A stretch of DNA of 32,000 nt from contig CP025011.1 of assembly GCA_002952755.1 (NCBI GenBank), forward strand, positions 1 to 32,000, read 5' to 3'. Positions 1 to 27,502 of the stretch are shown here, one piece after another. The notes under the pieces were generated by a model, which did no database searches, was not told where the DNA came from, and saw only the letters and a list, made by a program, of their open reading frames with translations. Both the position numbers and the translations under genes were made by a program. Position 1 is the first letter of the stretch, and each line of letters opens with the position of its first letter. The stretch comes from Candidatus Saccharimonadota bacterium. GTDB lineage: Bacteria > Patescibacteriota > Saccharimonadia > Saccharimonadales > UBA4665.

Positions 1-209
1 AATACCAGAACACAACCGATTAAGAGCGAGGACTGTTTGAGTCTCTAAAGAGGCGAGTTCCGCAGCGACGGTTGTGTTCTGGTATTTTCGAGTAATGTTT
101 TACGTTTAGCGCCGAGAGTTTTTGGTTACTTTTTGCGGGACAAAAAGTAACAGGTAAAGGGCGTAATTCGCGGGTGGGGGATTTACTGAGGAGGGTTAGG
201 ATGTGAGAG
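1..209 (+). repeat. Composite repeat family A, copy A1. Nested hairpin with arms 1-17 / 70-86 and core 18-69, then a 41-nt invariant block (112-152) containing a small hairpin at 125-151, then a G-rich tail that runs to the dnaN stop.
   Basis: aataccagaacacaacc (1-17) is the exact reverse complement of ggttgtgttctggtatt (70-86); the arm may continue left of the window. Core: GATTAAGAGCGAGGACTGTTTGAGTCTCTAAAGAGGCGAGTTCCGCAGCGAC. Small hairpin: GTTACTTTTTG-CGGGA-CAAAAAGTAAC at 125-151. The whole module recurs reverse-complemented at 5232-5476. Confidence 0.8.
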
Positions 210-1301
210 CTAGCTCTTCAGGGGCATAATAATGTGCGAGTAATCGCTGGCTGCGGGGTCGCGCAAAAGGGATGGTTCGAGTTTGCCATTGAAAGCAAAG
301 CTCACTTCCTCGCCAGAGAGGACATGCAGCGCATCGAGCAGGTAACGAGAATTAATGGTAATCGAACCGCTGCCTTCTACTTTAGCAGGCGCCTTGGCGG
401 TATTTTCGCCAAGCTGGGAGGCGATAGAGCGGATACTCAGCTCCTTTGTTTCCTCGTCGATATTGAGTGTAATGCTGCCCGCACTTTCGCGGGCAAACAG
501 GCTGGAAATTTTTGCTGCATTCAGTAAGTCGGCACGCAGCAGGGTGGCGCTGGTAGTAAAGCTTGTCGGAATTAGCTTGCGGTAATCAGGATATTTGCCT
601 TCGATCAGCCGGGCAACCAGTTCTACATCACCAACCCGGAAAAGTACTTGCTGATCGTCGCTCGTTACCTGCACCTCGTCTTCGGCGTCGCCCAAAATAC
701 GCAGTAAGTCCTGCATAGCCGTTACCGGCACCAGCAGATTGATGTCCTCATCCGTTTTGAGTAATTCTTTTTCGGCCAAGCGGTAGCTGTCGGTAGCCGC
801 CACGTGCAATACACCGTCAGCAGTATGGAAGTACACCCCAGTCAATACTGGGCGAGCTTCGTCACCCGACGCGGCAATAACAACTTGTTGCAACGCCTTT
901 TTTAGGAGTGCCGATGGAACCGTCCACGTCTTACCCTCGGTAATCGCCGGCATAACCGGAAATTCCTCAGCAGATACACCATTGATAACTGATTGATATT
1001 GATCAGTCACGATATGCAATTTGTATTCATCTAACTGCAAATCAATGACACCACCCGGCAAACTACTGACAAAATCCTGCATCAGCCGGGCAGGAGCAGT
1101 GATCGCCCCCTCATCGGCAACTTTAGCGCCAATATAATGCGTGATGGCGATGTCTAAATTAGTGGCCGCAATGCTTAAACGATTGTTCACGGTTTTTATA
1201 AGAACATTGGCTAGCACGGGCAGGGTGCCGCGCGCATTGGCTACCCGGGCAACCGTACCTAGTGCTTTATTCAGGTTTTCCTGTGTGACTTGCAGCTTCA
1301 T
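210..1301 (-). CDS. dnaN: DNA polymerase III beta subunit (sliding clamp)
   Basis: 363-aa ORF. The N-terminus MKLQVTQENLNKAL...LPVLANVLIK and the three-domain length are typical of DnaN. It lies downstream of dnaA on the same strand. AAGGAG sits 9 nt upstream of the ATG. Confidence 0.97.
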   Translation of the reverse strand: MKLQVTQENLNKALGTVARVANARGTLPVLANVLIKTVNNRLSIAATNLDIAITHYIGAKVADEGAITAPARLMQDFVSSLPGGVIDLQLDEYKLHIVTDQYQSVINGVSAEEFPVMPAITEGKTWTVPSALLKKALQQVVIAASGDEARPVLTGVYFHTADGVLHVAATDSYRLAEKELLKTDEDINLLVPVTAMQDLLRILGDAEDEVQVTSDDQQVLFRVGDVELVARLIEGKYPDYRKLIPTSFTTSATLLRADLLNAAKISSLFARESAGSITLNIDEETKELSIRSIASQLGENTAKAPAKVEGSGSITINSRYLLDALHVLSGEEVSFAFNGKLEPSLLRDPAASDYSHIIMPLKS

Positions 1302-1566
1302 CGTTATGCACTCCTTACTATGTAACTAATTAAATATATTAGTTGTTATTGTTATAGGCCCTGTGGAAGATGGGGAAAACGCGTCAACTAACAGATGATT
1401 TAGGTATGCTTTGGCCTGTGAAAAAATAGCCAGGAGTATGTGCGCAAAACGGGGAAAAAGAAGGGGTTGTCCACTGCGTCCATGGCATGCAGCATATGAT
1501 TTTGTGCACAAATAGTGTTCACGCCTCGGCATCTCCACGGCTAATTCCCAGGTTTTTGCACAGCTT
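1302..1566. other. dnaA-dnaN spacer: candidate second oriC module (AT-rich DUE-like stretch plus weak DnaA boxes)
   Basis: AT-rich run at 1321-1356 (tgtaactaattaaatatattagttgttattgttata). DnaA-box-like 9-mers: tgtggaaga 1362-1370, ttgtccact 1467-1475, ttgtgcaca 1502-1510, each 7/9 to TTATCCACA or its complement. The 123-aa ORF listed here (1326-1697) looks spurious. Confidence 0.45.
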
Positions 1567-2961
1567 TTACGCATACAGTTTGTCCTTAATGCTAGTAATG
1601 GCGCTGCGGATATCGGCATCAAGGCGCGATTCTTTTTCGATTTTTTCGATGGAGTGAATGGCGGTAGTGTGGTCTTTACGTCCCAGCTCCCGGGCAATCT
1701 TAGGGAAACTGAGGTGTAGTTCGCTCCTGAGCATATACATAGCCACCTGGCGTGGTACCACGATGTCTTTATCGCGTTTTGGGCCTAAGATGTCTTCAAT
1801 TGGTATTTGGAAATGTCGTGCGGTGCGCTCAATGATTTGTTTGGCGCTAATGTGCTTAGGTCGGGTTTGGGCGCTGCCGAGCAGGCTGCTAGCAATGCCC
1901 AAGTTAGGATCGAGGGCGCGCATTTCGCAGAAAGCCAATAACTGGTTGAGTGCACCTTCCAGCTCACGGATGTTGGTCTGAACATTATTTGCCAGATACT
2001 CGGTAACGTCAGTAGGCAACGTGATGCCGTGATTATGGGCTTTGGTCTGCAGAATGGCGCACCGTGTTTCAAAATCCGGTGTTTGCATGTCGATGCTCAT
2101 ACCCCACACAAAGCGGCTGCGCAAACGCTCTTCCAGTGTCGGAATGTCGCGCGGTGGCTTATCACTGCTGATAATGATCTGTCTGCTGGCCTGGTGCAGG
2201 GCATTAAAGGTATGAAAGAATTCTTCCTGGACCTTTTCTTTGCCGGCGATAAATTGGATATCGTCAACGATTAGTACATCGGCACCACGGTAAAAGTCGG
2301 CAAAGTCGGTATTCTTTTTAAATCTTAGGGCGTCGACGAATTCCTGCAGAAACTGCTCGCTTGATATATAGACAACACGGGCTTGAGAGTTGCCGGCTAA
2401 TACTGTATTACCAACTGCCTGCATAAGGTGTGTTTTGCCAATGCCGACGCCTCCATATAAGAACAAAGGGTTATATTTTGTGCCTGGCTGGGCGGCTACC
2501 GCCTGGCAGGCCGCATAGGCCAGTTCGTTGCCGGAGCCAACGATGAAGTTGTCGAAGGTATAGCGCTCATTTAACCCTTGACGATAGGCGTGAGTAAGGC
2601 CTGTGGCCTGCGGTTTAGCTGGTGTGGCATGTGCGGTGCTGGCACCGGGAGAAGGGCGCAGGACGGCAGCTTCTTCTTCGCGAACTGGTGTGAGGGCAGT
2701 GTGGATCTTGTATTCGACCTGGCCGACGTTCGTACCGTTTTTACGCAATGTTTCGATGATCAGATCGTTATATTTACGCTCCAGTTGTTGCTTAATAAAG
2801 ATGTTGGGTACGCCGATAATGATGCGTTCGTCATCCTGTTTGAGCAACACCGTGTTTTTGAACCACGTAATAAAGTTCCCCCGCGAGAGCGAAAGCTCGA
2901 TCTCGCCTAACACTGCTTGCCACAAATCTGACGCTGTTTGCATCACCCTCTCACTCATCAC
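1567..2961 (-). CDS. dnaA: Chromosomal replication initiator DnaA
   Basis: 464-aa ORF with Walker A GGVGIGKTHL, Walker B LIVDDIQF, and a C-terminal DNA-binding region ending ...DHTTAIHSIEKI. Position 2961 is GTG. An ATG at 2958 or 2943 is a possible alternative start. Confidence 0.97.
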   Translation of the reverse strand: MMSERVMQTASDLWQAVLGEIELSLSRGNFITWFKNTVLLKQDDERIIIGVPNIFIKQQLERKYNDLIIETLRKNGTNVGQVEYKIHTALTPVREEEAAVLRPSPGASTAHATPAKPQATGLTHAYRQGLNERYTFDNFIVGSGNELAYAACQAVAAQPGTKYNPLFLYGGVGIGKTHLMQAVGNTVLAGNSQARVVYISSEQFLQEFVDALRFKKNTDFADFYRGADVLIVDDIQFIAGKEKVQEEFFHTFNALHQASRQIIISSDKPPRDIPTLEERLRSRFVWGMSIDMQTPDFETRCAILQTKAHNHGITLPTDVTEYLANNVQTNIRELEGALNQLLAFCEMRALDPNLGIASSLLGSAQTRPKHISAKQIIERTARHFQIPIEDILGPKRDKDIVVPRQVAMYMLRSELHLSFPKIARELGRKDHTTAIHSIEKIEKESRLDADIRSAITSIKDKLYA

Positions 2962-3245
2962 TTAATACTAAAAACTATACGCCTGACGGTTACTTTTCCA
3001 CAAGTTTTCGAACCATGTTTATAACACACCATCCTACAGACGGGCCGACTAGGGATTTATACACAATATCAAGGCACATCTGTTAATGTGTGGAAAGAAC
3101 TTGAGATTGTGTGGAAAACTTGCTAAAATTAATGGGTTAAACATTGTTATTTTCACCAGAAGATAATAATTACAGAAAACTAAAGGGGACTCGTGTCCAG
3201 CCAACACCTTGAAGGCGGGACGCTCGTCCTGTAGAGTGAGAGCAT
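2962..3245. other. oriC candidate: DnaA-box cluster between divergent dnaA and rpmH
   Basis: Boxes: TTTTCCACA 2994-3002 (8/9), TTATACACA 3057-3065 (8/9), TGTGGAAAG 3089-3097 (7/9, complement orientation), TGTGGAAAA 3110-3118 (8/9, complement orientation). AT-rich sequence lies at 3121-3180. The ORFs listed at 3049-3252 and 3170-3376 are spurious. Confidence 0.65.
3209..3237 (+). promoter_or_regulatory. rpmH promoter candidate (-35 TTGAAG, 17-nt spacer, -10 TAGAGT) that would give a leaderless or near-leaderless mRNA
   Basis: TTGAAG at 3209-3214 and TAGAGT at 3232-3237. The ATG at 3246 is only 8 nt downstream of the -10 hexamer, and no Shine-Dalgarno motif lies between them. Confidence 0.5.
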
Positions 3246-3383
3246 ATGCCAAAACGAACGTACCAACCCAAGAAACGCCACCGCGCTCGCCAGCACGGTT
3301 TTATGGCACGCATGGCCAACCGCGCCGGTCGTGCGGTATTGCGCCGTCGCCGTCTTAAGGGTCGTGTTGCACTCACTAAGTAA
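3246..3383 (+). CDS. rpmH: 50S ribosomal protein L34
   Basis: Too short for the ORF track, so translated by hand: [45 protein letters not shown] (45 aa). This is the classic L34 pattern, and the gene is in the conserved position before rnpA. Confidence 0.95.
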
Positions 3384-3423
3384 TTTGCAAAAAGTCTAAG
3401 CCTATAAGGAGTGCGCTCCAGCC

Positions 3424-3813
3424 GTGATCACGCAAGCTCATAGATTCCATGGTCGGAACTCTTTGCGCTTTGTGTATCGGCGCGGGCAAACGATTCGCAC
3501 CGGAGTCGTTTCTCTTAAGTATATCCGCAACCAGCGCGAAGAAAAGTATCGCGTAGCTGTAGTGGTGAGCCGTAAGGTGAGCAAGTCTGCAGTAGTGCGT
3601 AACCGTATCCGCAGACGGGTGTATGAGATTGTACGTAAAGAGGCGACATACATCGGGGCGGCATACGATTTAGTTTTCTTTGTGTACGACGAATCGGTAG
3701 CCACTGTTTCGCACGCCCAACTAGAGCAGGCAATTATCGGCAGCCTGGAAAGGGCCAAGGTACTTAACAGATCAGAACGTGCTATAGTAGAAAATAAGGA
3801 GACGCTCACGTAA
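3424..3813 (+). CDS. rnpA: Ribonuclease P protein component
   Basis: 129-aa basic protein containing ...VVVSRKVSKSAVVRNRIRRRVYEIVR. The order rpmH-rnpA-yidC is conserved synteny. It has a GTG start, with AAGGAG at 3406-3411. Its stop overlaps the yidC start (TAATG). Confidence 0.9.
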   Translation: MITQAHRFHGRNSLRFVYRRGQTIRTGVVSLKYIRNQREEKYRVAVVVSRKVSKSAVVRNRIRRRVYEIVRKEATYIGAAYDLVFFVYDESVATVSHAQLEQAIIGSLERAKVLNRSERAIVENKETLT

Positions 3814-4763
3814 TGTTTACGACACTGATCATTCAGCCGATTTTTAACCTCTTAGTTCTTATTTATGCGCTACTGCCAGGGCATAACTTTGGTCTGAGCA
3901 TCATTATATTTACCATCGTTGTCCGCCTGCTCATGTGGCCGCTTGTGAAAAAGCAGCTGCATCAGGTAAAAGTGATGCGCGCTATTCAGCCTGAACTGAA
4001 GCGCATCAAAAAAGCCGCCGCCGGTAACCGCCAGCAAGAATCGTTAATGATGATGGCGCTCTACAAAGAGCGGGGCATCAATCCGTTTGGTTCTATCGGC
4101 GTACTGCTTATCCAGCTGCCTATTCTGATTGGCCTGTATAGTGGCCTCCAGCGCATTTTGCACAATCCTAAGGAGCTTGAGACATTTGCGTACACACCTT
4201 TGCGGCATTTGCCTTGGATGAAGCAACTGGCCGGCGATATTCATCAGTTCGATCATACGTTATTCCATGTAGTCGATCTGACGCGCAGTGCGTTTGGACC
4301 TAAGGGCGTGTACTGGCCGGCCTTGTTTATCGTGCTCGGCAGCGCTGTGGTACAGTTCTACCAGAGTAGCCAACTGACACCTGCGCCGAAAGACGCTCGC
4401 AAACTGCGTGACATCTTGAAGGGTGCGAGTAGCGGCCAGCAGGCTGATCAGTCTGAGGTGAATGCGGCTGTAGCGCGGAGTACTCGCTTCTTGCTGCCCG
4501 CCATGGTCTTCTTATTTACAGTAAATATCCCTTCAGCATTGGGTCTGTACTGGCTGGTGGGTGGTATGGCGGCCCTCGTGCAGCAAACGATTGCGCTCCG
4601 TGACGACACTAAGGAGATGGAAGCTGAAGTATCTGCCAAGGACGCAAGCCGTGCTGCAGCTAAAGAAAAAGAAAAGCACGCCGTCGAGGCGGAAGTTGTT
4701 ACAATGCCTACCAAACCTAAGCCAGCAAAAAAGAAGAGTAATCAAAAGCGGAGGAAAAAATAG
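3813..4763 (+). CDS. yidC: Membrane protein insertase YidC (short, monoderm-type, Lys-rich C-terminal tail)
   Basis: 316 aa with multiple TM segments. The motif LLMWPLVKKQ...MRAIQPELKRIKK is typical of YidC/Oxa1, and the tail ends KPKPAKKKSNQKRRKK. Synteny supports the call. Confidence 0.92.
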   Translation: MFTTLIIQPIFNLLVLIYALLPGHNFGLSIIIFTIVVRLLMWPLVKKQLHQVKVMRAIQPELKRIKKAAAGNRQQESLMMMALYKERGINPFGSIGVLLIQLPILIGLYSGLQRILHNPKELETFAYTPLRHLPWMKQLAGDIHQFDHTLFHVVDLTRSAFGPKGVYWPALFIVLGSAVVQFYQSSQLTPAPKDARKLRDILKGASSGQQADQSEVNAAVARSTRFLLPAMVFLFTVNIPSALGLYWLVGGMAALVQQTIALRDDTKEMEAEVSAKDASRAAAKEKEKHAVEAEVVTMPTKPKPAKKKSNQKRRKK

Positions 4764-5219
4764 ATGGAAGACGCCATTCGTTACGCTAAGAAGTACCTCG
4801 AAGATTTGCTGTCTTTTTTTGGTCTGAACACCGATGTGTATGCCACCTCCGAAGATGAGGTGATCGAGCTGGAGGTGCCATCGACGCATCTGAACGGTTT
4901 TTTGATTGGCCAAAAAGGCGACAATATGCGCGCCATGCAGTTTTTAGTGAGTAACGCCCTGAAAAATCAGGGGTTCGATTATACGCGCGTGAATGTTGAT
5001 ATCGCCGAATATAAAAAGCAACGCGCCCAGCGTCTTAGCGACCAGGCAGAAGAATGGATGAAAAAGGTCAAAGAAGATAAAAAGTCTATGGATCTTCGCC
5101 CGATGAATGCCGCCGACCGTCGCACTATCCATAAGTTAGCCCAAGAATGGGGCCTCATCAGCGAATCTGACGGCGAAGGCCGTGATCGGCATATTGTGCT
5201 TAAGCCTGAGGCTGAATAG
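4764..5219 (+). CDS. jag: Jag/KhpB-type RNA-binding protein (KH + R3H domains)
   Basis: 151 aa. KH-like segment FLIGQKGDNMRAMQFL. R3H-like segment MNAADRRTIHKLAQEWGLISESDGEGRDRHIVLKP. It lies immediately after yidC, as in many bacteria. Confidence 0.85.
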   Translation: MEDAIRYAKKYLEDLLSFFGLNTDVYATSEDEVIELEVPSTHLNGFLIGQKGDNMRAMQFLVSNALKNQGFDYTRVNVDIAEYKKQRAQRLSDQAEEWMKKVKEDKKSMDLRPMNAADRRTIHKLAQEWGLISESDGEGRDRHIVLKPEAE

Positions 5220-5231
5220 AGTTTCGGCTGA

Positions 5232-5476
5232 ACTTACATATATCTCCTCATTACCTCCACCCCAAACCCCACAAACCAGACTTCCTCAGTAAATCCCAAC
5301 CCGCGACCTGCAATCCTTATATTGTTACTTTTTGTCCCGCAAAAAGTAACCAAAAACTCTCGGGACCAACATAAAACACTACTTAAAGAAAGAGCTTCTT
5401 GACCGTCGCTGCGGAACTCGCCTCTTAGAGGCTCAAACAGTCCTCACTCTAATTGGTCAAGAAGCTCTTTCTTTAA
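5232..5476 (-). repeat. Composite repeat family A, copy A2 (inverted relative to A1). Nested hairpin with arms 5383-5404 / 5455-5476 and core 5405-5454, plus an invariant 41-nt block at 5323-5363 that contains a hairpin at 5324-5350.
   Basis: ttaaagaaagagcttcttgacc (5383-5404) is the exact reverse complement of 5455-5476 (22/22). The core reverse complement AATTAGAGTGAGGACTGTTTGAGCCTCTAAGAGGCGAGTTCCGCAGCGAC is about 90% identical to the A1 core. The 41-nt block is identical to A1 112-152. The arms are unrelated to the A1 arms. The inner boundary near 5232 is approximate. Confidence 0.8.
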
Positions 5477-5678
5477 ATCGGTTTTACTCCAGGCCCCGAA
5501 CCCCGTCGGAGAGGGTAGGTGGATATTGTACCTAATACAGTAAATACTGAGTAGCTTTCAATCGCAGGACTACACGGCCGAACTATTCGGATATCTAGGG
5601 CTGCGATGGAGAGGTGGTTAGTGAATATCTTTTGCTTATTTTTGGGTTTGGGTTTGATCCGGGGTGAAAAAAGGCGGG

Positions 5679-6779
5679 TTATCCGATAATGCTTTTGTAG
5701 ACGGTGAGTGTTTCTTCGCTCATTTTTTTCCAGGAATATCTTTTGACTTGCTTGGCGCCAGCTGCAATAAGCTGGTTACGGAGTTTATCGTCATCTAATA
5801 CCTTGGCGACTTGCCTGGCGATGTCCTCTGGATCTTTCGGATTGCAGTAGACAGCGGCGTCGCCATACACTTCTGGCATGACGCTGGCGTTGCTGGACAC
5901 CACCGGGGCTCCGTGGGCCATAGCTTCTAGTGCGGTTAGGCCAAAACCTTCGCCAAGAGATGGTGTTACGTATAATTTAGTGTGGCTGTAGAGCCATTTG
6001 ACCTCTTCGTCGGGCAAAAATCCCGTAATGTGAATATGATCTGCAGAGGTAAAGGAGGCAATTTGCTCCTCAAGTTCGAGGTAGTGTTTTTCCTTCTTGC
6101 CGACAAGTAGTAAGTGAACATCAGGGTGAGACGTATGGAGCAGCTCGAAGGCCTTGCATAGTGTTAGTACGTTTTTGTGCGGGAATGCAGTGCCTAAGTA
6201 CATGATGAAATTGTCGGGGATATCTTTTGGCTTCACGGCTGCTGCTTTGATGGGCGGCTCGCTCGCTTCCAATGTGACTGCCAATTTTTTTTTGGTAAAA
6301 GGCTGAAATTCGATAAGCTCATTGGCAACCGTGTGAGTGGGTACGATAATGCGATCTGATTTTCTATGCCCCCACCAGAACAAGAAGTGGTATAACTTCA
6401 TCTTAAGCCAATATACTGGTGCGGGCGTGGTGCCCCGGCGAATGAAGTGGAACATCAGCAAATCGTGCGTAGTGGTCACGATGCGGCCAAAATAGAAGAT
6501 AGGCTGCTGGGTCATAGTGAAGTGTACGAGGTCTGGACGAAGACGATACACTTGCCAGGCAAAGCGCAATTGGTCGAGCGGGTTAAAGGAAAATTGCGGG
6601 AAGGGGCAGGGGACCGTTTTGAAGACGGGGGAGTGCATCTTCCAATTGTCATCAGGCTCGACGAGAATGGTGTAGCGGTTCACGTGGTCGATATCTTGCA
6701 GATGTTCGACTAGGCGGTCGGTATAACGGCCGGTACTGCTACGGCGGATGCGGGCGTCGATGACAATATGTTTCTGCAT
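5679..6779 (-). CDS. Glycosyltransferase family 4 (GT-B, group 1)
   Basis: C-terminal motif EGFGLTALEAMAHGAPVVSS. I prefer the ATG at 6779 (MQKHIVIDAR...) to the ORF-track start at 6839, which would overlap the divergent gene. Confidence 0.85.
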   Translation of the reverse strand: MQKHIVIDARIRRSSTGRYTDRLVEHLQDIDHVNRYTILVEPDDNWKMHSPVFKTVPCPFPQFSFNPLDQLRFAWQVYRLRPDLVHFTMTQQPIFYFGRIVTTTHDLLMFHFIRRGTTPAPVYWLKMKLYHFLFWWGHRKSDRIIVPTHTVANELIEFQPFTKKKLAVTLEASEPPIKAAAVKPKDIPDNFIMYLGTAFPHKNVLTLCKAFELLHTSHPDVHLLLVGKKEKHYLELEEQIASFTSADHIHITGFLPDEEVKWLYSHTKLYVTPSLGEGFGLTALEAMAHGAPVVSSNASVMPEVYGDAAVYCNPKDPEDIARQVAKVLDDDKLRNQLIAAGAKQVKRYSWKKMSEETLTVYKSIIG

Positions 6780-6785
6780 GCTTGC

Positions 6786-6795
6786 TATAATTATA
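6786..6795. promoter_or_regulatory. Overlapping divergent -10 elements in the palindrome TATAATTATA
   Basis: TATAAT at 6786-6791 on the + strand is 11 nt before the ATG at 6803. TATAAT on the - strand (6795-6790) is 10 nt before the ATG at 6779. The whole intergenic gap is only 23 bp. Confidence 0.45.
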
Positions 6796-6802
6796 CGCGA
6801 AC

Positions 6803-8128
6803 ATGCACCCCACCCGGCGAATACCATATTATGGCGCACTCGCGCTGCTTATATATATGCCGTTTCATGTGTTCTTAAGTCAGTCGCTGAGCCTGGTCAC
6901 GGGTGGACTAGATGAGTGGAAGGTAGCGAAAGACATCTTAGCAGCTGTATTAGCACTGTTCACTTTTTGTATAGTTATACAGCAAAAGCGTAGCACCAGG
7001 TTGAGTAATACCCTGCTGGGACTGGGCGTAGTCTATGGAATACTACATATAGCGCTCTGGATAGCGCATCCTCACATCTATCGCCCAAGCGCCTTGCTGG
7101 GCACGTTGTATAACAATCGTCTCTGGCTATACGGCTTTATTGGCTTAGGAGCGGCGCTTCTTACGAGACAAAAACAGTTCAACCAGACCGCACTTATGAA
7201 AGTGGTGCTTGGGGTAAGCACAATCGTTGCCGCACTGGGCGTCGCACAATATTTTTTGCCACATACGCTCTTGACGCACTTCGGATATGGACCAAAACGC
7301 GGCACGGTTGCGGCTTTTTATATTGATAACCGGCCCAATTTTCCGCGCATCATGTCTAGTTTACGAGACCCCAACTCGCTCGGGGCCTACCTCATCTTAC
7401 CGCTTACTTTACTTACGTCTCTTATGTTTCGTGCCGTTAATGACAAACAGCGAGCGCTGCTTATGATGCTGGCAGGACTGCACCTTATAGCGATCTTTCT
7501 GACCTTTTCGCGTAGCGCATGGGTAGGTGCTGCACTTTCGGTTGGATTGCTGCTGCTTTGGCAGTACTCATCGAAGATTATGGGGCTCCTGCGGCGGTGG
7601 TGGCCGGTGGCCGCTAGCGTATTGCTGATCGGCATGGTGGCAACTTACACCGCTCGTAACACCTATGTCTTTAAGAGTGTCGTGAGCCATCACACGGGTG
7701 CGCCGCAAGGTGTTGCCTATGATTCTAACGGTTTCCACTGGGTGTTCGCCAAGCGTGGTCTTGAAGGCATAGTTCGTAATCCGTTTGGTCACGGGCCAGG
7801 GACGGCCGGGCTCGCTTCGATTCAAAACCCAGCAGGCAGTTTTTTGACAGAAAACTACTATATTCAGATTGGGTATGAAGTGGGGGTGCTCGGCCTCCTC
7901 CTCTTTTTGGCTATCAATGTGGTGTTGTACCGACAGCTGTGGCGACGGCGAGATTCCCCTCTATCGGCCATGCTTCTCTGTAGCTCCTGGGCCTATGTCC
8001 TGGTGAACATGCTGCTCCATATGTGGAGTAATGAAGCGGTCGCAGCCCAGTGGTGGCTGTTGGCCGGATTCGTTGCTGGCCTGCCGACAAGCGCTGTCGG
8101 ATCTAAGAAGTTGATGCATAGATCATAA
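6803..8128 (+). CDS. O-antigen ligase / polymerase-like membrane protein (Wzy_C-type)
   Basis: 441 aa with about 10-12 TM segments. The signature ...FLTFSRSAWVGAALSVGLLLLW and a central extracytoplasmic loop are typical of the WaaL/Wzy_C family. Confidence 0.7.
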   Translation: MHPTRRIPYYGALALLIYMPFHVFLSQSLSLVTGGLDEWKVAKDILAAVLALFTFCIVIQQKRSTRLSNTLLGLGVVYGILHIALWIAHPHIYRPSALLGTLYNNRLWLYGFIGLGAALLTRQKQFNQTALMKVVLGVSTIVAALGVAQYFLPHTLLTHFGYGPKRGTVAAFYIDNRPNFPRIMSSLRDPNSLGAYLILPLTLLTSLMFRAVNDKQRALLMMLAGLHLIAIFLTFSRSAWVGAALSVGLLLLWQYSSKIMGLLRRWWPVAASVLLIGMVATYTARNTYVFKSVVSHHTGAPQGVAYDSNGFHWVFAKRGLEGIVRNPFGHGPGTAGLASIQNPAGSFLTENYYIQIGYEVGVLGLLLFLAINVVLYRQLWRRRDSPLSAMLLCSSWAYVLVNMLLHMWSNEAVAAQWWLLAGFVAGLPTSAVGSKKLMHRS

Positions 8129-8144
8129 GGTATAATATAAAACT

Positions 8145-8969
8145 ATGACCGCCAGTCTTAAGACATTTACTCAGCGCTACCGATACGCTGTCATTTTGCT
8201 TCGCCAGATGGTCGTGTCCGATTTCAAACTGCGCTATCAGGGGTCAGTTTTGGGGTATGTGTGGTCGCTGCTCCGTCCGCTATTCCTGTTTGTCATCATG
8301 TATGTGGTGTTCGTCCGATTTTTGCATATCGGAGACGACATACCCCACTACCCCGTGTATCTGCTTACCGGCATTGTGTTCTGGAATTTTTTTGCTGAGA
8401 TCACCAACAATGGCGTCTCGGCAATCGTCAGTCGCGGCGACTTGATCCGCAAACTCAATTTTCCGAAGTTTGTAATTATTCTATCGGCAGCCTGCGCGGC
8501 CCTTATTAATCTCGTGCTGAATTTGATTGTTATCGGCATTTTTATGTATACCAATCATGTACAGATTGGCTGGGGAGCACTATGGTCGCCGCTGTTTATA
8601 CTAGAGATTCTCGCCTTTGCGTTATCGCTTGCCTTTATTTTGAGTGCACTTTTTGTTCGCCTAAGGGATGTCAATTACATTTGGGAGGTGCTAATGCAGG
8701 CGCTCTTTTACGCTACGCCTATCATCTACCCCCTAAGTAAGGTGAGCAAGGATTGGCCTGCAGTCGCTAAAATACTACTGCTGAACCCCGTTGCTCAAGC
8801 CATTCAGGATATCCGCTATAACACGATTACACAGAAAACGGAGACGATTAGCTCCTTGAGCCACCACCTATGGTTTATATGTATACCTTTCGCTATCGTC
8901 GCTGTCATTGGCTGCGTGGCAATCGTTTTCTTTAAAAAACGTTCGCCTAGTTTCGCTGAAGAAGTATAA
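8145..8969 (+). CDS. wzm: ABC-2 type polysaccharide/teichoic-acid exporter permease
   Basis: 274 aa. The N-terminal motif FKLRYQGSVLGYVWSLLRPL and six TM segments are typical of Wzm/TagG. Confidence 0.8.
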   Translation: MTASLKTFTQRYRYAVILLRQMVVSDFKLRYQGSVLGYVWSLLRPLFLFVIMYVVFVRFLHIGDDIPHYPVYLLTGIVFWNFFAEITNNGVSAIVSRGDLIRKLNFPKFVIILSAACAALINLVLNLIVIGIFMYTNHVQIGWGALWSPLFILEILAFALSLAFILSALFVRLRDVNYIWEVLMQALFYATPIIYPLSKVSKDWPAVAKILLLNPVAQAIQDIRYNTITQKTETISSLSHHLWFICIPFAIVAVIGCVAIVFFKKRSPSFAEEV

Positions 8970-8972
8970 CCG

Positions 8973-9082
8973 GCCGGGCGAGACCATACTCCCACTTGCA
9001 GAGTCAAGCGTAGTACAACCAGACCGACTTCCAGTCGGCCTGCGTGAAACGCTCTGCAAGTGGGAGTATGGTCTCGCCCGGC
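8973..9082 (+). repeat. Nested hairpin repeat family B, copy B1: 31-bp perfect arms around a 48-nt conserved core
   Basis: 8973-9003 is the exact reverse complement of 9052-9082. Core 9004-9051: TCAAGCGTAGTACAACCAGACCGACTTCCAGTCGGCCTGCGTGAAACG. It fills the gap between the convergent wzm stop (8969) and GT4 stop (9089). Strand is the one on which the core reads TCAAGCG... Confidence 0.9.
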
Positions 9083-9088
9083 TAAAAC

Positions 9089-10243
9089 CTACTTTTCGAC
9101 GGCGCGTAGGATCTTTTTGTACACACTGGCAGCTATTGCTTCTTGAGTGAAGCTGGCCGCGGTCTTTTTGCCCTGTTCACTAAGCTGGTTGCGGCGGGCT
9201 TCGTCAGTAATAAGGTTTTCGATACACTCGGCAATGGCATCAACGTCTTGATAGTTAAAGTAGCTGGCTGCAGTACCGGCGACTTCATGGAATACCGGAA
9301 TATCGCTGGCAGCCACCGGTGTACCGTAACTCATTGCTTCGAGCAGCGGCATGCCAAAACCTTCGTAGCCGCTGGCATTCACGTACAGCACGGCATTTTT
9401 GAACAGCACGGCACGCATTAGCTCATCGACATATCCAAGATATTTAATATCGAAGCCTTGCCTGCGCAGATCGCGGATTTTATTCTCTTCGGCATTGCTT
9501 TTCCAGCCGATCCTTCCAGCTACCACCATAGTATGGGTGTTGCGGATAGTGGCCGGCAGTTTCGTATAAGCTTCTAAGATGCTCGGCAAATTTTTACGTG
9601 GCTCGATAGTGCTGAGGTAGAGGATAAAGGGTTTATGAATGCCTCCGTGGAGTAAAACAGAAGATTCCTCGCGGTCAGTAAACGTGCGAGGTGGCTCGGC
9701 CGGAATAGGTGTTACAAGAATACGATCTGTAGACTGGTGATATATGCCAGCAATCTTTTGCTTGCTAAATTCAGACACTGTAATAATAAAGCTGGAACGG
9801 CGTACAGCTACCGGCACAAACCGTTCCAGGTCACGCTGGTTTTTATCGGCTACATATTCGGGAAGATCTAGGTAGGTAAGATCGTGGATAACCGGGGCGC
9901 TTGGGGTGCGGCGCAAGCTAGGGTAGCTTAAGAAGTTGGGGTACAAGATAAAGTCGGCCGCGGTTTTGCTTAGAATTTCTACCGGGCATTCAATCCCCCA
10001 TCGGCGCAATTGATACAACACTTTACTGGGGATGAAACGAACTGCTTTATAGCGAATATTCGGCGCCTGGGGGAAATGGGTAATCGAACGCTTACCTAAG
10101 AAATTATAGTAAAAGCCAATGAGCTCAACTTGTTCCGGATACTGCGCCGCGAGGCCCATGATCAGGCGTTCGGTGTAATAAGCGACCCCTGTTTTATTGA
10201 CGAGCAATGGGCTGGCATCGAAGACGATACGGAGTGGACGCAT
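9089..10243 (-). CDS. Glycosyltransferase family 4
   Basis: Motif EGFGMPLLEAMSYGTPVAASD. The ATG at 10243 (MRPLRIVFDAS) is preferred; the ORF-track start at 10252 is TTG. Confidence 0.85.
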   Translation of the reverse strand: MRPLRIVFDASPLLVNKTGVAYYTERLIMGLAAQYPEQVELIGFYYNFLGKRSITHFPQAPNIRYKAVRFIPSKVLYQLRRWGIECPVEILSKTAADFILYPNFLSYPSLRRTPSAPVIHDLTYLDLPEYVADKNQRDLERFVPVAVRRSSFIITVSEFSKQKIAGIYHQSTDRILVTPIPAEPPRTFTDREESSVLLHGGIHKPFILYLSTIEPRKNLPSILEAYTKLPATIRNTHTMVVAGRIGWKSNAEENKIRDLRRQGFDIKYLGYVDELMRAVLFKNAVLYVNASGYEGFGMPLLEAMSYGTPVAASDIPVFHEVAGTAASYFNYQDVDAIAECIENLITDEARRNQLSEQGKKTAASFTQEAIAASVYKKILRAVEK

Positions 10244-10274
10244 ATATACCAATAATACCGTATAATGTGATCAA

Positions 10275-11468
10275 ATGGATGACAACGCAATACGAGTCGA
10301 GTCGGTATTCAAGTCGTTTGTATTACCGCATGAACGATCTCAATCGGTCAAGGGTTCTTTTACACGGCTGTTCCGCGGCGTACATAGCGGAGCAGAGAAT
10401 CAACAGGCACTGAGAGACGTGTCCTTCGAGATTAAAAAAGGTGAGTTTTTTGGAATCGCGGGCAGAAATGGCAGCGGCAAAAGTACGCTGCTTAAGATTC
10501 TGGCCGGTATTTATCAGCCAACGAAAGGCCAGGTGACGGTAGAAGGCCGGTTGGTGCCTTTTATTGAACTGGGCGTCGGTTTTAATCCGGAGCTTACGGG
10601 CCGGGAGAATTTGTATTTAAACGGTGCCCTGCTCGGCTTCTCAAAAAAAGAAGTGCTCACTATGTACGATGAGATTGTGGCCTTTGCCGAGCTGGAGCGC
10701 TTTATGGACCAGAAGCTCAAAAATTATTCGTCCGGCATGCAGGTGCGGTTAGCTTTCTCGCTTGCGGTTCGCGCCCAGGCCGACATCTTGCTCATCGATG
10801 AGGTGCTCGCCGTGGGTGATGCCGACTTCCAGCGTAAATGCTTTCACTATTTTCGGGCCCTAAAGAAGCAAAAGACAACGGTCGTTTTTGTGACACACGA
10901 CATGGGTGCACTCCGCGAGTACTGCGACCGGGCAATCCTGATCGATCAAAGCGAGGTGATTGCCAAAGGTGGAGCCGACGACATCGCCCAGCGCTACACG
11001 CAATTATTTATCGAAAAAGAAGTCGCCGAGGATGCTAAAAAGGTGCACGGGGAGCGCTGGGGGGGCGGCCAGGCGCGCATGGATGTGGTCGCTACCAATA
11101 AGCGTAAATACACTGAAGACGACAAAGAGATTATAGTCTCGACGCGGTTTACTGCCCAGAAAGACATGCAAGATCCTATCATTGGCTTCTCTATTAAAGA
11201 TGGTGCCGATAACGTGCTTTTTGGCACCAATACCAAGATTAAAAAAATACGTACCGGTCTGGTGCGTGCCGGTGAAAGCAGGGAACTCCTTTGGACCGTG
11301 CCGAATATTTTGGCCGATGGCCGCCAATATATTAATGCAACGATAGAACATAACGACGCCGTTACGGTCGCCGACTGGTGGACCGATGCGACGTACTTTA
11401 CTGTTCGCAAAACTGAGCAAACCGCATACCACCTCACGCCCTCTATAGAGGTTAAGGTGAAGAAATAG
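10275..11468 (+). CDS. wzt: Polysaccharide ABC exporter ATP-binding protein with a C-terminal extension of about 150 aa (Wzt-type putative glycan-binding domain)
   Basis: Walker A GRNGSGKST, signature YSSGMQVRL, Walker B LLIDEVLAVGD. About 150 further residues follow the NBD (ERWGGGQARMDVV...YFTVRK). Confidence 0.88.
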   Translation: MDDNAIRVESVFKSFVLPHERSQSVKGSFTRLFRGVHSGAENQQALRDVSFEIKKGEFFGIAGRNGSGKSTLLKILAGIYQPTKGQVTVEGRLVPFIELGVGFNPELTGRENLYLNGALLGFSKKEVLTMYDEIVAFAELERFMDQKLKNYSSGMQVRLAFSLAVRAQADILLIDEVLAVGDADFQRKCFHYFRALKKQKTTVVFVTHDMGALREYCDRAILIDQSEVIAKGGADDIAQRYTQLFIEKEVAEDAKKVHGERWGGGQARMDVVATNKRKYTEDDKEIIVSTRFTAQKDMQDPIIGFSIKDGADNVLFGTNTKIKKIRTGLVRAGESRELLWTVPNILADGRQYINATIEHNDAVTVADWWTDATYFTVRKTEQTAYHLTPSIEVKVKK

Positions 11469-11479
11469 ACGAAGATAGT

Positions 11480-11956
11480 ATGGCAACAAATGACAAAGAC
11501 GCGCGTATCAAAGAGTTAGAAGTTGCAAATAATGCTTACGTTGCCGAAATCAGCCGGCTAGCCGCAAGACTAGGTGAGCTGAACGGCGAAATGGGGCGCT
11601 TGCAGGGTGAATTATCGCAAAAGCGCGGCGTACGGCATCAGACAAGCGGCTTGTACCGTGCGCTTGATTTGGCAATCACTTCGCGGATTGAACGCAAAGG
11701 CCGCATCCGAAAACCACCACGCAGATCAGGAACAGTTGAGCCTATCTCGCCCCAAGTGCTGACTCTCGATAACGTACAGGAGCTTATGGGCCTGGCCCGC
11801 CGGTATGACTCGGCTGCTTACTTTCGCTATCGGGCCAGCAAGAGTGGTATGCGCCTTAGGTACCGGGTTGTAGGCCGTGTATATAGAACGTCACGTGATG
11901 CGGCCAAAGCCAGTGTGAAAGGTGCCTATCGTCTGGCGCGAAAGGTACAGAAATGA
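11480..11956 (+). CDS. Hypothetical coiled-coil protein with a strongly basic C-terminal region
   Basis: 158 aa. N-terminal heptad-like segment KELEVANNAYVAEISRLAARLGELNGEMGRLQGEL. Arg/Lys/Tyr-rich C-terminus. Its stop overlaps the start of the next gene (ATGA at 11953-11956). No family recognised. Confidence 0.55.
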   Translation: MATNDKDARIKELEVANNAYVAEISRLAARLGELNGEMGRLQGELSQKRGVRHQTSGLYRALDLAITSRIERKGRIRKPPRRSGTVEPISPQVLTLDNVQELMGLARRYDSAAYFRYRASKSGMRLRYRVVGRVYRTSRDAAKASVKGAYRLARKVQK

Positions 11957-14313
11957 GCAAAACAAAACTCGTCGTCGACGGCCAGGTGTTTCAGACCACT
12001 GCACGCGATCGCGGCATGGGGCGGTATGCGGTGTGCCTGCTCCAAGCGCTGATTGCAACAAAAACATACGATGTAACATTCATTGTAAGCTCAGAGCTGC
12101 CATTCCAGGAAGACGATCGGAAACTCTTATCTCGTATTTTCCAGGGGGCAGATTTCCATACACTTGATCTTCATACGACCAAACGACACAAGATTGAAGA
12201 AGCCTGCAAGCATAACGAGGCGGTGCTTGCGAACTACATGGAAACGCACGCCGCCCCAGACAGTATCTTTTTTATTCCGTCCCTCTTTCAGGAGCCGGTG
12301 GCGGCTGTTTTTCCTAAGGGTAGTACGGGCATGAAAGCGTTGCTGTTTCATGACCTTATCCCGTATCTGTACCACAATCGCTATGCACCAGTCATGATGT
12401 GGGAAAATTATCTGAAGCGCTTCCGTTACTTATTCGAAGCCGATCTGATTTTTGCGAATTCTCAAGCGACTGCCGACGATCTCAATATGTATTTAGGCGT
12501 TCCACGCCACAAACTGTGCCGGATTGATGGAGCGGCTATTCATACCGATTCGGCGAGCGAAAGACCAGCCCACATCGATACCTCGCGACCTTTTATTCTT
12601 TTAAACACCAGTGACGATCCGCGTAAAAATAATCTTCGTAGCATCCTGGCTTTTGAGGAATTTAAACGATCTTCCGATAAGGAATATAGCCTGATATTGA
12701 CCTCGCAAATACATAAGCGGGAGCGCGAGCACCTGCAGCGTTTTTCGCACAATTTGCAATTTACCGGCAACATTCCCGAGCGTGAGCTGAATTGGTTGTA
12801 CTCACACTGCGAAGCCGTACTGTTCGTGCCTGAAAACGAAGGCCTGGGGTTACCAGCGCTCGAGGCGGTAGATGCCGGCAAGAAAGTAGTCTGTTCGTCG
12901 ATTGACGTGCTGCGCGAGATTTCCACCGACGCATTTTTTTACTGTAATTACGAAAATAGCTATGCCATTGCGCAAGCGCTGGCCCAGGCCGTTGATCCTG
13001 CGGTAAAAGTGAATAAGGCAGCGTACAAAACGATTTTGAGCCACTATACGTGGCCGAGAACTGCCGAGCGCATGTTGCAGGGCCTCCAAGCTTGGACACC
13101 GCCAAAGCAAATCAAGAAGCCAAAGTTGGCAATTCTGATGCCAACGCCAAATGGCCTCACCGGCGTTGGCCTCACCGGCGCCATTCTACACCCCACACTT
13201 GCTGAACAGTTCGACATCGACTACTACCTAGAATATGGCTTGTCGAACGAGAGCGTCCGACCCAACTATTTGCAGTATGTAGCCCCTTGTTACCCGGCCA
13301 CAAGTTTTAGCGCCAAGCGCTACGCAACATATGACGCAGTTTTTTACCACATAGGGAATGGCGATTATCATCTAGAGAGCATCATGGCGGCTTTGAACTT
13401 GCCAGGCTATCTTATAGTTCATGACACCACGGTAGCTGAGGCCTATAGGGTGCTGCACGAAACGGGCATGATGAGCGAGGAGCGGGCGGCACTAGAAGCA
13501 CGTTTGGATACGCTAATAAAAACAACAAAAAGCAGCGACTATACTTCGCTGGCGAATCGTCAACTGGGTATACTCGTACACTCCGACTACGCCTATGAGG
13601 CGATGAACGAGGTGCTGGATACTGCGGTGTCCGTTTTGAAGGCTAATTTGCCCATAGCTGTCCCGCAAGCAGATAATCTGCACGATACGCAGGACAATAT
13701 AGTGATTGGGCTGGCCGGCGCCATTTCTGATGTGAAAGGCCTGGACGTTATAAAAAACATTGCTGAAGATCCGGAGTTCGATGGCTGTGACATTCGCCTT
13801 TTCGGTATTAGTCATGCCTCGCCCCAACGATTGGCTGAGCTTAGTGCCTATGATAACGTGAGCATTGCCACCAACGTCAGCGATTTTGACTTTCAGACCA
13901 ACGTTTCCAAGCTCGATATTTTTGTGAATTACCGCTTGGCATATAAGGGCGAAACGTCGAATACGACGCTCGAAGCAATGCGCCAAGGAGTCGTCGCCAT
14001 TGTCCGCAAAGTAGGTTGGTATGATGAATTGCCCGATGATGTCGTTGTAAAAGTGAAGGGTCCTGAAGCAGTGATTCCCCTGCTACGCGACCTGGTACAT
14101 GATGCTAAACGGCGCCAGGCTCTGGGTAAGCGTGCGAAAGCGTATGTCTCCCAACACTTCAGTACCGAGCAGTACGCGGTGGCTATGAAGGAGCTCCTAG
14201 CTCAAGATCTTACTAAAAACCCCAACGCTGCTTTGACGGCCACTTTGAAGTCAGGCAGGATAAAGAGTCCGAATGCGCTCCGCTCGTGGCTTCACAAGAA
14301 AGGCTTGGCATAA
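11953..14313 (+). CDS. Two-module glycosyltransferase (tandem GT4-like domains, WbdA-like architecture)
   Basis: 786 aa. The first module has EGLGLPALEAVDAGKKVVCSS. The second module starts near KKPKLAILMPTPNG and carries ...GETSNTTLEAMRQGVVAIV. Confidence 0.8.
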   Translation: MSKTKLVVDGQVFQTTARDRGMGRYAVCLLQALIATKTYDVTFIVSSELPFQEDDRKLLSRIFQGADFHTLDLHTTKRHKIEEACKHNEAVLANYMETHAAPDSIFFIPSLFQEPVAAVFPKGSTGMKALLFHDLIPYLYHNRYAPVMMWENYLKRFRYLFEADLIFANSQATADDLNMYLGVPRHKLCRIDGAAIHTDSASERPAHIDTSRPFILLNTSDDPRKNNLRSILAFEEFKRSSDKEYSLILTSQIHKREREHLQRFSHNLQFTGNIPERELNWLYSHCEAVLFVPENEGLGLPALEAVDAGKKVVCSSIDVLREISTDAFFYCNYENSYAIAQALAQAVDPAVKVNKAAYKTILSHYTWPRTAERMLQGLQAWTPPKQIKKPKLAILMPTPNGLTGVGLTGAILHPTLAEQFDIDYYLEYGLSNESVRPNYLQYVAPCYPATSFSAKRYATYDAVFYHIGNGDYHLESIMAALNLPGYLIVHDTTVAEAYRVLHETGMMSEERAALEARLDTLIKTTKSSDYTSLANRQLGILVHSDYAYEAMNEVLDTAVSVLKANLPIAVPQADNLHDTQDNIVIGLAGAISDVKGLDVIKNIAEDPEFDGCDIRLFGISHASPQRLAELSAYDNVSIATNVSDFDFQTNVSKLDIFVNYRLAYKGETSNTTLEAMRQGVVAIVRKVGWYDELPDDVVVKVKGPEAVIPLLRDLVHDAKRRQALGKRAKAYVSQHFSTEQYAVAMKELLAQDLTKNPNAALTATLKSGRIKSPNALRSWLHKKGLA

Positions 14314-15560
14314 TGAGCGGTATCATCTGGATTGATGTCACTGATTTTTTGAAGTGGCAAGGTAACTTTACTGCTTTTCAGCATATTCAGTACCACATGG
14401 CGCAACTGTATATGGCGAGTGATCACGATGCAGCCTTTTTCGTCTACGACGAACCGTCTCATTCGTTTTCGAAGGTTGATTTTGACCCCGACAAACTTTC
14501 GCATAGTGGTATGCGCATCGAGACTATGGCTGTACCACCAGTTGGTAGACGTTTCTTGCAGAAAGCCAAGCAAGCTACTCCTGCACCTGCAAAACGAGCG
14601 CTTAAGAAGCTTATGAAGGCTCGGCCTCTTGCACAAAGCGACGCGGCGCACGTGAACGGCCATGCGCCGTTTGCACAGGGCGATACTGTCGTTGTGCTGG
14701 GTGGTATCTGGCACGGCAGTTTCGCTACAGATATGGCGATTCAGAAACAACAAAAGGGCTTCCGCTTTGTGCACGTCGTGCATGATATGGTGCCGGTGGT
14801 ATGCCCGCAATGTGTCGTAGAAGATTTGCCGGAAGTATTTGCGGCTTATAAAGAAAAGATTTTCAGCATAGCCGATGGATTACTGATCAATTCCGAGTCG
14901 TCCAAGAAAGATGCGATTGCGTTTATGAAGCAGCGCAAGATAGCGATACCAAAACATACTGTATTTCGACTAGCCGATGAAGTCGCAACAGGTAAAACGC
15001 CTCGCGCTGTGCACGGCCTAAGACCACAGGAGTTCATTCTATCTCTAGGAACTATCGAGGGCCGCAAGAATCATATGCTCTTATACTATGTCTATAAGCA
15101 GGCAGCTCGCCAGGGTATTACACTTCCCAAAATGGTTATTGCCGGTCGGCACGGTTGGCTGGTGGAAGACTTTTTCTATCTGGTATCGCGTGATCCGGAA
15201 ATTAAGGACAAGATTATCGTCTTAGAGGGGGTCGATAACGAAGAGCGCGCATGGTTATACAAGCACTGCCTGCTGACAGTTTGGCCATCATTTTACGAAG
15301 GCTGGGGTATGCCTGTGGCCGAAGGGCTCACCTATGGCAAGGTCTCGCTCTCTACCGACACCTCATCGATGCCGGAAATTGGGGGCAAGCTGGTGGATTA
15401 TTTTTCTCCTTTCGACCCTCAGTCGTGCCTTCAGCTAATTGTAAAATATTTGGACACATCCACCAGGCAGCGGCGCGAACAGGAAATTAAGAGAAATTAC
15501 CGCGTAACTACTTGGGAAGACATGTTCCAGGTAGTTAGCCAGTTTATTGATAGTGTATAG
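14313..15560 (+). CDS. Glycosyltransferase family 4
   Basis: Motif EGWGMPVAEGLTYGKVSLSTD. The start is taken at the ATG at 14313 (MSGIIWIDVTDF...), which overlaps the upstream stop as TAATG. The ORF-track start is 14286. Confidence 0.8.
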   Translation: MSGIIWIDVTDFLKWQGNFTAFQHIQYHMAQLYMASDHDAAFFVYDEPSHSFSKVDFDPDKLSHSGMRIETMAVPPVGRRFLQKAKQATPAPAKRALKKLMKARPLAQSDAAHVNGHAPFAQGDTVVVLGGIWHGSFATDMAIQKQQKGFRFVHVVHDMVPVVCPQCVVEDLPEVFAAYKEKIFSIADGLLINSESSKKDAIAFMKQRKIAIPKHTVFRLADEVATGKTPRAVHGLRPQEFILSLGTIEGRKNHMLLYYVYKQAARQGITLPKMVIAGRHGWLVEDFFYLVSRDPEIKDKIIVLEGVDNEERAWLYKHCLLTVWPSFYEGWGMPVAEGLTYGKVSLSTDTSSMPEIGGKLVDYFSPFDPQSCLQLIVKYLDTSTRQRREQEIKRNYRVTTWEDMFQVVSQFIDSV

Positions 15561-15589
15561 TCGACGGCCAGTCTCAGTATTATATAGGG

Positions 15590-15636
15590 CATTTCGCGCA
15601 GGTCGGCGAAAGTCGATCTGACTGCAGTATGCTAGA
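15590..15636 (-). repeat. Arm-less diverged copy of the family-B core (copy BX)
   Basis: The + strand CATTTCGCGCAGGTCGGCGAAAGTCGATCTGACTGCAGTATGCTAGA aligns without gaps to the B2 + strand core (33/47 identical). The inner helix CAGGTCGGC-GAAA-GTCGATCTG is retained. No flanking inverted arms were found. It ends 1 nt before the stop codon at 15638-15640. Confidence 0.65.
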
Positions 15637-15637
15637 T

Positions 15638-27483: not shown

Positions 27484-27502
27484 AATCTTTTAGTTGCGCC
27501 GT

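Follow-up and report, generated by a model that had tools for sequence, protein, structure and literature searches.

Two families of hairpin repeats with conserved cores and copy-specific perfect stems at gene 3' ends in a Candidatus Saccharimonadales chromosome

In our study, a chromosomal stretch of 32,000 nucleotides (hereafter the window) of Candidatus Saccharimonadales (TM7, candidate phyla radiation) was found to contain hairpin repeats of two families, the previously undescribed family A and a second family, B. Three copies of family A and four copies of family B were found in ~37 kb, comprising the window and a contig that continues it, and all of them were intergenic. Family A, with at least three copies, has a modular anatomy with mosaic conservation, in which conserved modules that pair in a strand-specific manner alternate with segments that differ between copies. 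The copies lie at the 3' ends of genes, and neither family was found in relatives. The explanation that we favour, tentatively and at somewhat less than an even chance, is that family A is a structured repeat, old and specific to its lineage, which would act in cis at gene 3' ends and whose stem would be kept perfect by homogenisation of its arms at the DNA level.

Genomic setting and anatomy of family A

The window starts in the replication-origin region of the chromosome. The dnaN open reading frame was found at 210-1301 on the minus strand (stop codon 210-212), followed by dnaA at 1567-2961 on the same strand. These two genes face rpmH, rnpA, yidC, and jag, beyond which a cell-surface polysaccharide gene cluster was found by Pfam and NCBIfam scans. 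The five ORFs nearest to the copies A1 and A2 were identified as dnaN, dnaA, rnpA, yidC, and jag by the Pfam tags of a contig of the same strain (L001). The closest DnaN proteins were only 87% identical, and those named by organism were mostly from Saccharimonadales. Three DnaA-box-like 9-mers cluster between dnaA and rpmH (2994-3118 and 3246-3383), which is likely to be oriC. A1 and A2 flank this 5-kb origin block in inverted orientation, and recombination between the two copies would invert the block. Further along the window, a 696-aa protein is encoded at 23527-25617 (minus strand). It contains internal repeats of 137 aa (411 nt) and carries an Ig-like domain at the C-terminus, and the 3' end of its gene shares 14 nt with a convergent gene for a 1105-aa glycosyltransferase.

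Copy A1 (1-209) is a modular repeat on the plus strand, located directly after the dnaN stop, and it is truncated because the window begins within its 5' arm. The remaining 5' arm (1-18) was 100% complementary to 69-86 and forms the locus-specific perfect stem. It was followed by the conserved core of 50 nt (19-68), which contained a 13-bp fold (3 + 5 + 5 bp) with G·U on the plus strand and was the same as A2 in 47 of the 52 aligned columns. The 3' arm was placed at 69-91, in which 69-86 is proven to be paired and 87-91 probably pairs to the left of the window. The full arm probably runs to 91 (GGTTGTGTTCTGGTATTTTCGA, 22 nt) and is probably 22 nt as in A2, because a GTA(A/G)TG block starts right after the arm in both copies: GTAATG in A1 and GTAGTG at the equivalent place after the 22-nt arm of A2. 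Block X (92-118), the 3' half of an outer imperfect stem whose partner lies left of the window, was 78% identical to A2, in which the counterpart pairs with the 5' flank. Module H (119-151) contained TTTTTG followed by a perfect 11-bp hairpin, GTTACTTTTTG-CGGGA-CAAAAAGTAAC (125-151), and was 100% identical to A2 and 94% to A3. It is part of a 41-nt block (112-152), which was 100% complementary to 5323-5363, where 0 chance matches are expected. Then came an unconstrained linker (152-167), with 35-44% identity among A1, A2, and A3, followed by module T (168-193), a conserved G-rich sequence (TCGCGGGTGGGGGATTTACTGAGGAG) with 88% identity to A2 and 74% to A3. The tail GGTTAGGATGTGAGAG (194-209) abuts the dnaN stop codon and was like the tail of A3 and unlike that of A2.

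An earlier note on this DNA had outlined much of this anatomy. The hairpin that it described is present, although its coordinates had to be corrected from arms at 1-17/70-86 with a 52-nt core to arms at 1-18/69-86 (18 bp) with 50 nt between them. The ~90% identity of the core to A2, the 41-nt block identical in A2, the perfect hairpin inside this block, the partly conserved block before it, and the unlike arms of A1 and A2 (9 of 22 positions identical ungapped, 13 of 25 in a gapped alignment) were all recovered. The G-rich tail does end at the dnaN stop, but it consists of two parts, of which 168-193 is conserved and 194-209 is not A2-like.

A2 (5225-5520, minus strand) is the sole complete copy of family A. 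In plus-strand coordinates, it contained the 5' half of the outer stem at 5477-5499, the 5' arm at 5455-5476, the core at 5405-5454, and the 3' arm at 5383-5404, followed by X at 5357-5382, H at 5324-5356, the linker at 5307-5323, T at 5282-5306, and the tail at 5220-5281. The order of parts in family A, as read from A2, is outer imperfect stem, 22-bp perfect stem, core, module H, linker, and module T. The 22-bp perfect stem is nested in a longer hairpin, in which 23-26 nt on the 5' side pair with block X on the 3' side. The variable arm thus lies between conserved sequence on both sides, as the earlier note had held.

The third copy, A3, was found ~4.8 kb right of the window end, at 1-115 of a contig of the same strain (L023; nhmmer E = 2e-14). 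The contig was obtained by a GlmS look-up and reaches 4.9 kb beyond the right end of the window. Only the 3' modules of A3 were present. Block X was followed by module H, which carries two substitutions, by a shortened linker, by module T, in which 7 nt are inserted, and by an A1-like tail. Its arms and core lie beyond the contig end, the contig starting 6 nt outside the expected arm position, and family A is therefore read from one complete copy (A2) and two partial ones (A1 and A3). The earlier note had allowed that only two copies might exist, explained by a single local duplication. With the diverged A3 to the right of the window, family A is not the product of such a duplication.

The pairing of family A is strand-specific. 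Thirteen pairs make up the fold of the core, and one of them is an invariant G·U. Two of the differences between A1 and A2 affect its stems, and each is a one-sided change that leaves a wobble pair on the same strand. The outer stem of A2 holds four G·U pairs, and its duplex energy was -22.2 kcal/mol on the A-forward strand versus -14.5 on the other strand, with shuffles at -11.5 +/- 3.1. The fold of A2 as a whole was -109 kcal/mol on the forward strand versus -82 on the opposite strand; the corresponding values for A1 were -69.5 and -51.

Family B, gene-end location, and absence from relatives

Family B was found to contain three copies with long perfect arms around a 55-nt core. B1 (8973-9082, structured strand minus) contained perfect arms of 31 bp, including a conserved AGAG/CTCT, B2 (17899-17999, plus strand) arms of 27 bp, and B3 (29103-29205, minus strand) arms of 28 bp, both of which were confirmed on independent contigs. 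The arms of B1-B3 were unrelated between copies, whereas the cores, apart from the apical loop, shared 93-100% identity. At the apex of the inner hairpin the sequence is different in each of the three copies, yet pairing is kept. The fourth copy, B4 (15586-15640, plus strand), was found by a profile search and contained a diverged core (~75% identity) with no long arms, the fold being kept by compensatory changes. A 15-pair structure of the B core was 100% paired in the four copies, whereas shifted controls pair only 25-35%; four of its pairs have changed on both sides (compensatory) and a G·U is invariant. The structured strand of family B was always co-directional with an upstream gene.

The 3' end of B4 overlaps the stop codon of a convergent ORFan gene. 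This adjoining gene (15638-16597, minus strand; 319 aa) lies within the glycosyltransferase cluster. Orthologues of it were sought for an older B4 site, and its sole match among 5.8 billion proteins was itself; no Pfam, NCBIfam, or PDB match was found. B2 gave a sub-threshold Rfam match to MIR1120, a plant miRNA family derived from MITEs (30.9 bits versus a threshold of 86), because the model has a conserved stem sequence (cuCcCUCcgUccc) to which the B2 arm CATCCCTCCCTC is similar. We judged this generic long-hairpin match to be a coincidence.

The likeness of the A and B cores had suggested one superfamily in the earlier note. The covariance model of the B core scored the A cores at noise (7.9 bits), and the strands that had been compared are opposite functional strands by the wobble-pair evidence. 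The superfamily link is therefore not supported, and what the two families share is an architecture.

The elements were located at gene ends. All convergent junctions in the window with a spacer of >20 nt hold an element (A2, B1, B4, and B2). Of the other two elements in the window, A1 directly adjoins the dnaN stop codon and B3 is located after glmS. No A or B element was present in any of the divergent, promoter-bearing spacers of the window. No promoter or U-tract terminator was detected at the elements, the scan count being equal to the shuffle count, and no T run follows any A or B element on either strand; the GC-rich stem plus U tract of an intrinsic terminator was thus not found. The sense-strand 3' flanks of dnaN (170-209, minus), jag (5220-5264, plus), and the GT1 gene (5634-5678, minus) contained 36-47% C and 7-9% G, and such C-rich, G-poor flanks resemble Rho-utilisation sites. 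The G-rich tail of family A is the antisense of a C-rich gene 3' flank.

Both families were absent from six related dnaN loci with 79-87% DnaN identity, obtained by DnaN-homologue look-ups, and from ~90 kb of related sequence. In the relatives, recF or another gene follows dnaN within 10-60 nt. No long perfect inverted repeat with a spacer was found at the related dnaN loci, and perfect inverted repeats that reach 14-15 bp were absent from L011, L012, L013, L016, L021, and L022. The exception among the relatives was found in L019, in which the region between rnpA and dnaA, likely the origin, contains a perfect palindrome of 36 bp with no spacer between its arms (1399-1434); this palindrome is unrelated to A and B. 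Also unrelated to them is an uncalled small ORF in the 427-nt dnaN-recF gap of L022 (1200-1560), which begins with MRIKCFEDV and whose product we take to resemble the four-helix-bundle (23S rRNA intervening sequence) proteins.

Further copies were also sought in larger collections. The A core had chance matches only in 185,579 species genomes, and the small hairpin and the B core had no match in JGI metagenomes or IMG/VR. No A or B element reached the gathering threshold in Rfam, in which lax searches returned generic hairpin noise. A chimeric peptide query for spurious ORFs that might be called over the elements returned nothing.

Short-read contigs of the same strain matched the window without mismatch over 123-5352, 5482-9003, 9053-17979, and 24604-32000. 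Three sequencing runs yielded independent contigs that were 100% identical to the window to the left and right of the elements and extend over arms and cores; the elements are therefore not assembly artefacts. At every A and B element, the Logan short-read contigs of the strain break off (L001, L002, L017, L018, L023, and L025-L027), and the two contigs at B3 abut within the loop of its inner hairpin. Palindromic k-mers, hairpins that are read through poorly, or heterogeneity, for example inversion of the core, could account for the breaks. One contig, L026 (SRR9952756, an accession outside the SRR349542xx series), was from the same strain and was 100% identical over 2.2 kb, including the complete left arm of B1.

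Conserved modules, variable stems, and their possible origin

The pairwise identity of the family-A copies depended on the module. It was 0.90 in the core and 0.94-1.00 in H, followed by 0.71-0.88 in T and 0.54-0.78 in X, whereas it was 0.35-0.44 in the linker and 0.41-0.52 in the arms. The linker between hairpin H and module T, 9-17 nt long, has thus diverged as much as the arms. It follows that the copies are old enough for saturation at unconstrained positions and that the conserved modules were kept by selection. It also follows that a fast-evolving or programmable stem is not needed to account for a variable segment amid conserved ones.

The variable stems of the five armed elements of both families amount to 126 bp with 0 mismatches and 0 G·U pairs, whereas the conserved stems of the same hairpins carry both. 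Compensation at the RNA level alone would leave G·U intermediates. The strict Watson-Crick pairing of 126 bp therefore points to self-templating at the DNA level, one arm being copied from the other. Exactly five loci of the window contained perfect inverted repeats with arms of 14 bp or longer and a spacer of 30-80 nt. These loci are the elements A1, A2, and B1-B3, and 20 Markov shuffles of the window contained no such locus. Template switching that homogenises the arms of inverted repeats, and is able to invert the spacer, is documented (PMC8604942, PMC7202029, PMC3820800). A motif common to some arms and tails, CTCCTCA, showed no significant enrichment.

We propose that family A may be a non-autonomous, multi-copy element built from a three-layer hairpin (outer imperfect stem, 22-bp perfect stem, and 50-nt core) followed by H and T. 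The conserved modules would be held by purifying selection on one strand, where G·U is tolerated as it would be in RNA or another single-stranded nucleic acid. The 22-bp stem would be constrained only to remain a perfect duplex, its sequence having drifted to saturation like the linker. The arms would stay Watson-Crick through repeated re-copying of one from the other at the DNA level by intrastrand template switching. The element, once transcribed, would form a long double-stranded RNA hairpin, which may mark, block, or process the end of the transcript. Such a hairpin would insulate convergent genes and could conceivably, as we infer by analogy with REP/BIME or phage lambda sib hairpins, be a substrate of the RNase III type. 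Several points weigh against this explanation. Family A was read from a single complete copy and two partial ones, and the scans detected neither a promoter nor a U-tract terminator. Homogenisation must spare the core and the outer stem with its G·U pairs, which is explained by invoking selection alone, and the near-identical cores of B1-B3 with unrelated arms fit arms made at insertion better than slow drift.

The last of these points belongs to the main rival explanation, in which the core alone is mobile and the arms are made at each insertion by fold-back (self-primed) synthesis, copying 20-30 nt of the flank inverted. Nucleation would be by the closing helix of the core, which has 3-4 bp (AGAG/CTCT in B and ACC/GGT in A). 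We consider this explanation unlikely, and it fits family B better than family A. In family B, the arms are perfectly Watson-Crick, unique to the locus, and variable in length (27-31 bp including AGAG/CTCT), nothing is conserved outside them, and the armless B4 is without complementary AGAG/CTCT termini. Inspection of the sequence revealed no direct repeats, and hence no target-site duplication, around B1-B3 or A2, and no empty long palindromes of this kind were found in the window or the relatives; both agree with fold-back. In family A, however, the arms are internal, with conserved modules on the 3' side and, in A2, a pairing partner on the 5' side. For them to be simple copies of a target flank, the core would have had to enter another repeat at the same site in independent events. 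Moreover, no similarity was found between the arms and their own flanks, which also stands against copying from the flank.

The elements might also be a hairpin of a new, self-templating kind, either mobile or maintained, which may be conceived in two ways: the core could build a locus-specific perfect stem from neighbouring DNA at insertion, or the perfect 22-bp duplex, fixed in length, could be processed into locus-specific small RNAs. We regard this as decidedly unlikely. In the small-RNA case, an obligate episymbiont would possess a bacterial counterpart of the pri-miRNA, a cassette whose targets might be host or phage sequences.

A structure-specific mobile core might instead insert into the loops of pre-existing hairpins or palindromes, the arms then being the stem of the target itself. 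IS1397 inserts in REP loops, and the arm-core-arm unit of A2 lies exactly at the apex of the conserved outer hairpin; the lack of a target-site duplication would also agree with such insertion. However, the 32-kb window contained 0 unoccupied perfect palindromes of at least 14 bp, and such targets were equally lacking at the six related dnaN loci, the palindrome of L019 being the exception among the relatives. Natural terminator stems are far shorter and imperfect, and B4 is a core that has no stem, so that we hold this explanation to be very unlikely.

The 22-bp stem could also be programmable, as a guide/passenger duplex like that of a pri-miRNA or a guide RNA scaffold, and be matched to phage, the host bacterium, or another locus. 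The variable segment is apparently 22 nt in both A1 and A2 and lies between conserved sequence, the perfect duplex is sandwiched by G·U-containing stems, and CPR bacteria host TIGR-Tas with stems that are "variable but consistently palindromic" (PMC12045711). However, the arms had no match in the rest of the window, and the four arms of A2, B1, B2, and B3 had no exact match in IMG/VR, a search that covers host genomes and Saccharibacteria phages poorly. By BLAST, neither A2 nor B2 matched any of the phage records searched, and A2 was also without a match among the plasmid records. The 32-kb window contained no gene for a reverse transcriptase (RT), nuclease, transposase, or recombinase, and no effector or Nop-domain (Tas) gene; no RT was found either when the 19 larger ORFs between 5.7 and 32 kb were scanned with Pfam and NCBIfam. 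The copies are dispersed and not arrayed, and TIGR loops hold variable spacers whereas the loops here are conserved with no visible box C/D motif. A guide in a perfect hairpin cannot pair with its target unless it is processed. The identical B1 arm in an unrelated sequencing run is a further but weak point, the strain being otherwise identical. This explanation is, in our view, highly improbable.

The earlier note had spoken of a programmable or fast-evolving cassette and had loosely compared it with retrons, while stating that no RT or nuclease gene lay in the window. That statement was confirmed. The cassette is not supported, the linker (35-44% identity) being as diverged as the arms and the arms matching nothing at the loci, phages, and plasmids against which the note had proposed to compare them and which were searched as above. 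The retron analogy is not supported either: Rfam returned no retron family, either at the gathering threshold over the window or at E<=10 over A1 and A2. A retron msr/msd is like family A in having a small hairpin beside a long hairpin, whereas family A has no RT adjacent to it or in the window, occurs in several dispersed copies, and does not match the hairpin order and the a1/a2 repeats. The programmable-cassette and retron readings thus found no positive support and are highly improbable, and none of the observations shows the variable stem to serve as a guide that can be programmed.

Ordinary paralogous non-coding RNA genes, with a stem that evolves purely by compensatory substitution at the RNA level and no process at the DNA level, would account for the mosaic conservation and for the strand-specific G·U of the conserved stems. 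However, G·U intermediates are common in the neighbouring conserved stems and number 0 in the 126 bp of variable stem, which makes this extremely improbable. The inverted placement of A1 and A2 around the dnaA block and the contig breaks at the elements might suggest that the repeats arose by faulty assembly or by one local duplication in inverted orientation around the origin region. This explanation has virtually no probability and is refuted by the third, diverged copy elsewhere (A3) and by the independent contigs of three sequencing runs, which cover arms and cores without mismatch, the arms also differing between copies.

Comparison with known repeats and significance

The A and B elements are bacterial hairpin repeats with an inverted conservation pattern. 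The REP/BIME/REPIN sequences, which are mobilised by RAYT (TnpA-REP), are like A and B in being short, multi-copy, non-coding, hairpin-forming, and extragenic, in their preference for gene 3' ends and convergent junctions, and in having no target-site duplication. They are also thought to act as mRNA 3' stem-loops, as A and B are read here. In REP, the arms of the palindrome are conserved (often with a GTAG or CGTC tag) and the loop varies, whereas in A and B the core loop is conserved and the stem differs in each copy. The stems of A and B are, moreover, 22-31 bp long and perfect, and no RAYT gene was found in the 32-kb window. The extragenic, multi-copy, 3'-end-biased occurrence of REP/REPIN was thus found in our elements, whereas its conserved arms were not (9/22 ungapped and 13/25 gapped, A1 versus A2).

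The MITE-like repeats of bacteria (Correia/CREE, ERIC, RUP, BOX, and bcr1) are like A and B in length (100-300 nt), in being intergenic, dispersed, and lineage-restricted, in their potential to form a long hairpin when transcribed, and in their modular or mosaic build. MITEs contain terminal inverted repeats conserved in the family and usually target-site duplications, whereas A and B contain neither.

The closest published analogue was found in the TIGR units of TIGR-Tas, which occur in CPR/Patescibacteria and in phages and contain variable, consistently palindromic stems around a loop of ~50 nt (PMC12045711). These units form tandem arrays beside a Tas (Nop-domain) gene, and their loops contain two variable spacers of 8-12 nt flanked by box C/D (PMC12045711). 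A variable but consistently palindromic closing stem is thus common to TIGR and to A and B. In contrast to the arrays, A and B are dispersed single units located 3-11 kb apart with no Tas gene or Nop-domain match in the window, and their cores are 90-96% conserved and contain no RUGAUGA or CUGA boxes.

Phage lambda sib and the other 3' hairpins processed by RNase III (retroregulation) are like A and B in that a coding region is followed by a long, near-perfect stem of 20 bp or longer, which in A and B would likewise act as double-stranded RNA. They are single-copy and form no repeat families, whereas A and B are multi-copy and would be processed by analogy.

Seven copies of two structured families in ~37 kb, filling nearly every convergent junction, were unexpected because the genomes of the candidate phyla radiation are small and streamlined. 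A practical effect is that short-read assemblies of the lineage break at every copy. The combination of a conserved loop with a copy-specific perfect stem is unusual and is the reverse of the classic REP and MITE layout. The presence of G·U-tolerant and strictly Watson-Crick stems in one hairpin makes these repeats a natural test case for homogenisation of arms at the DNA level or for a new route by which hairpins are made.
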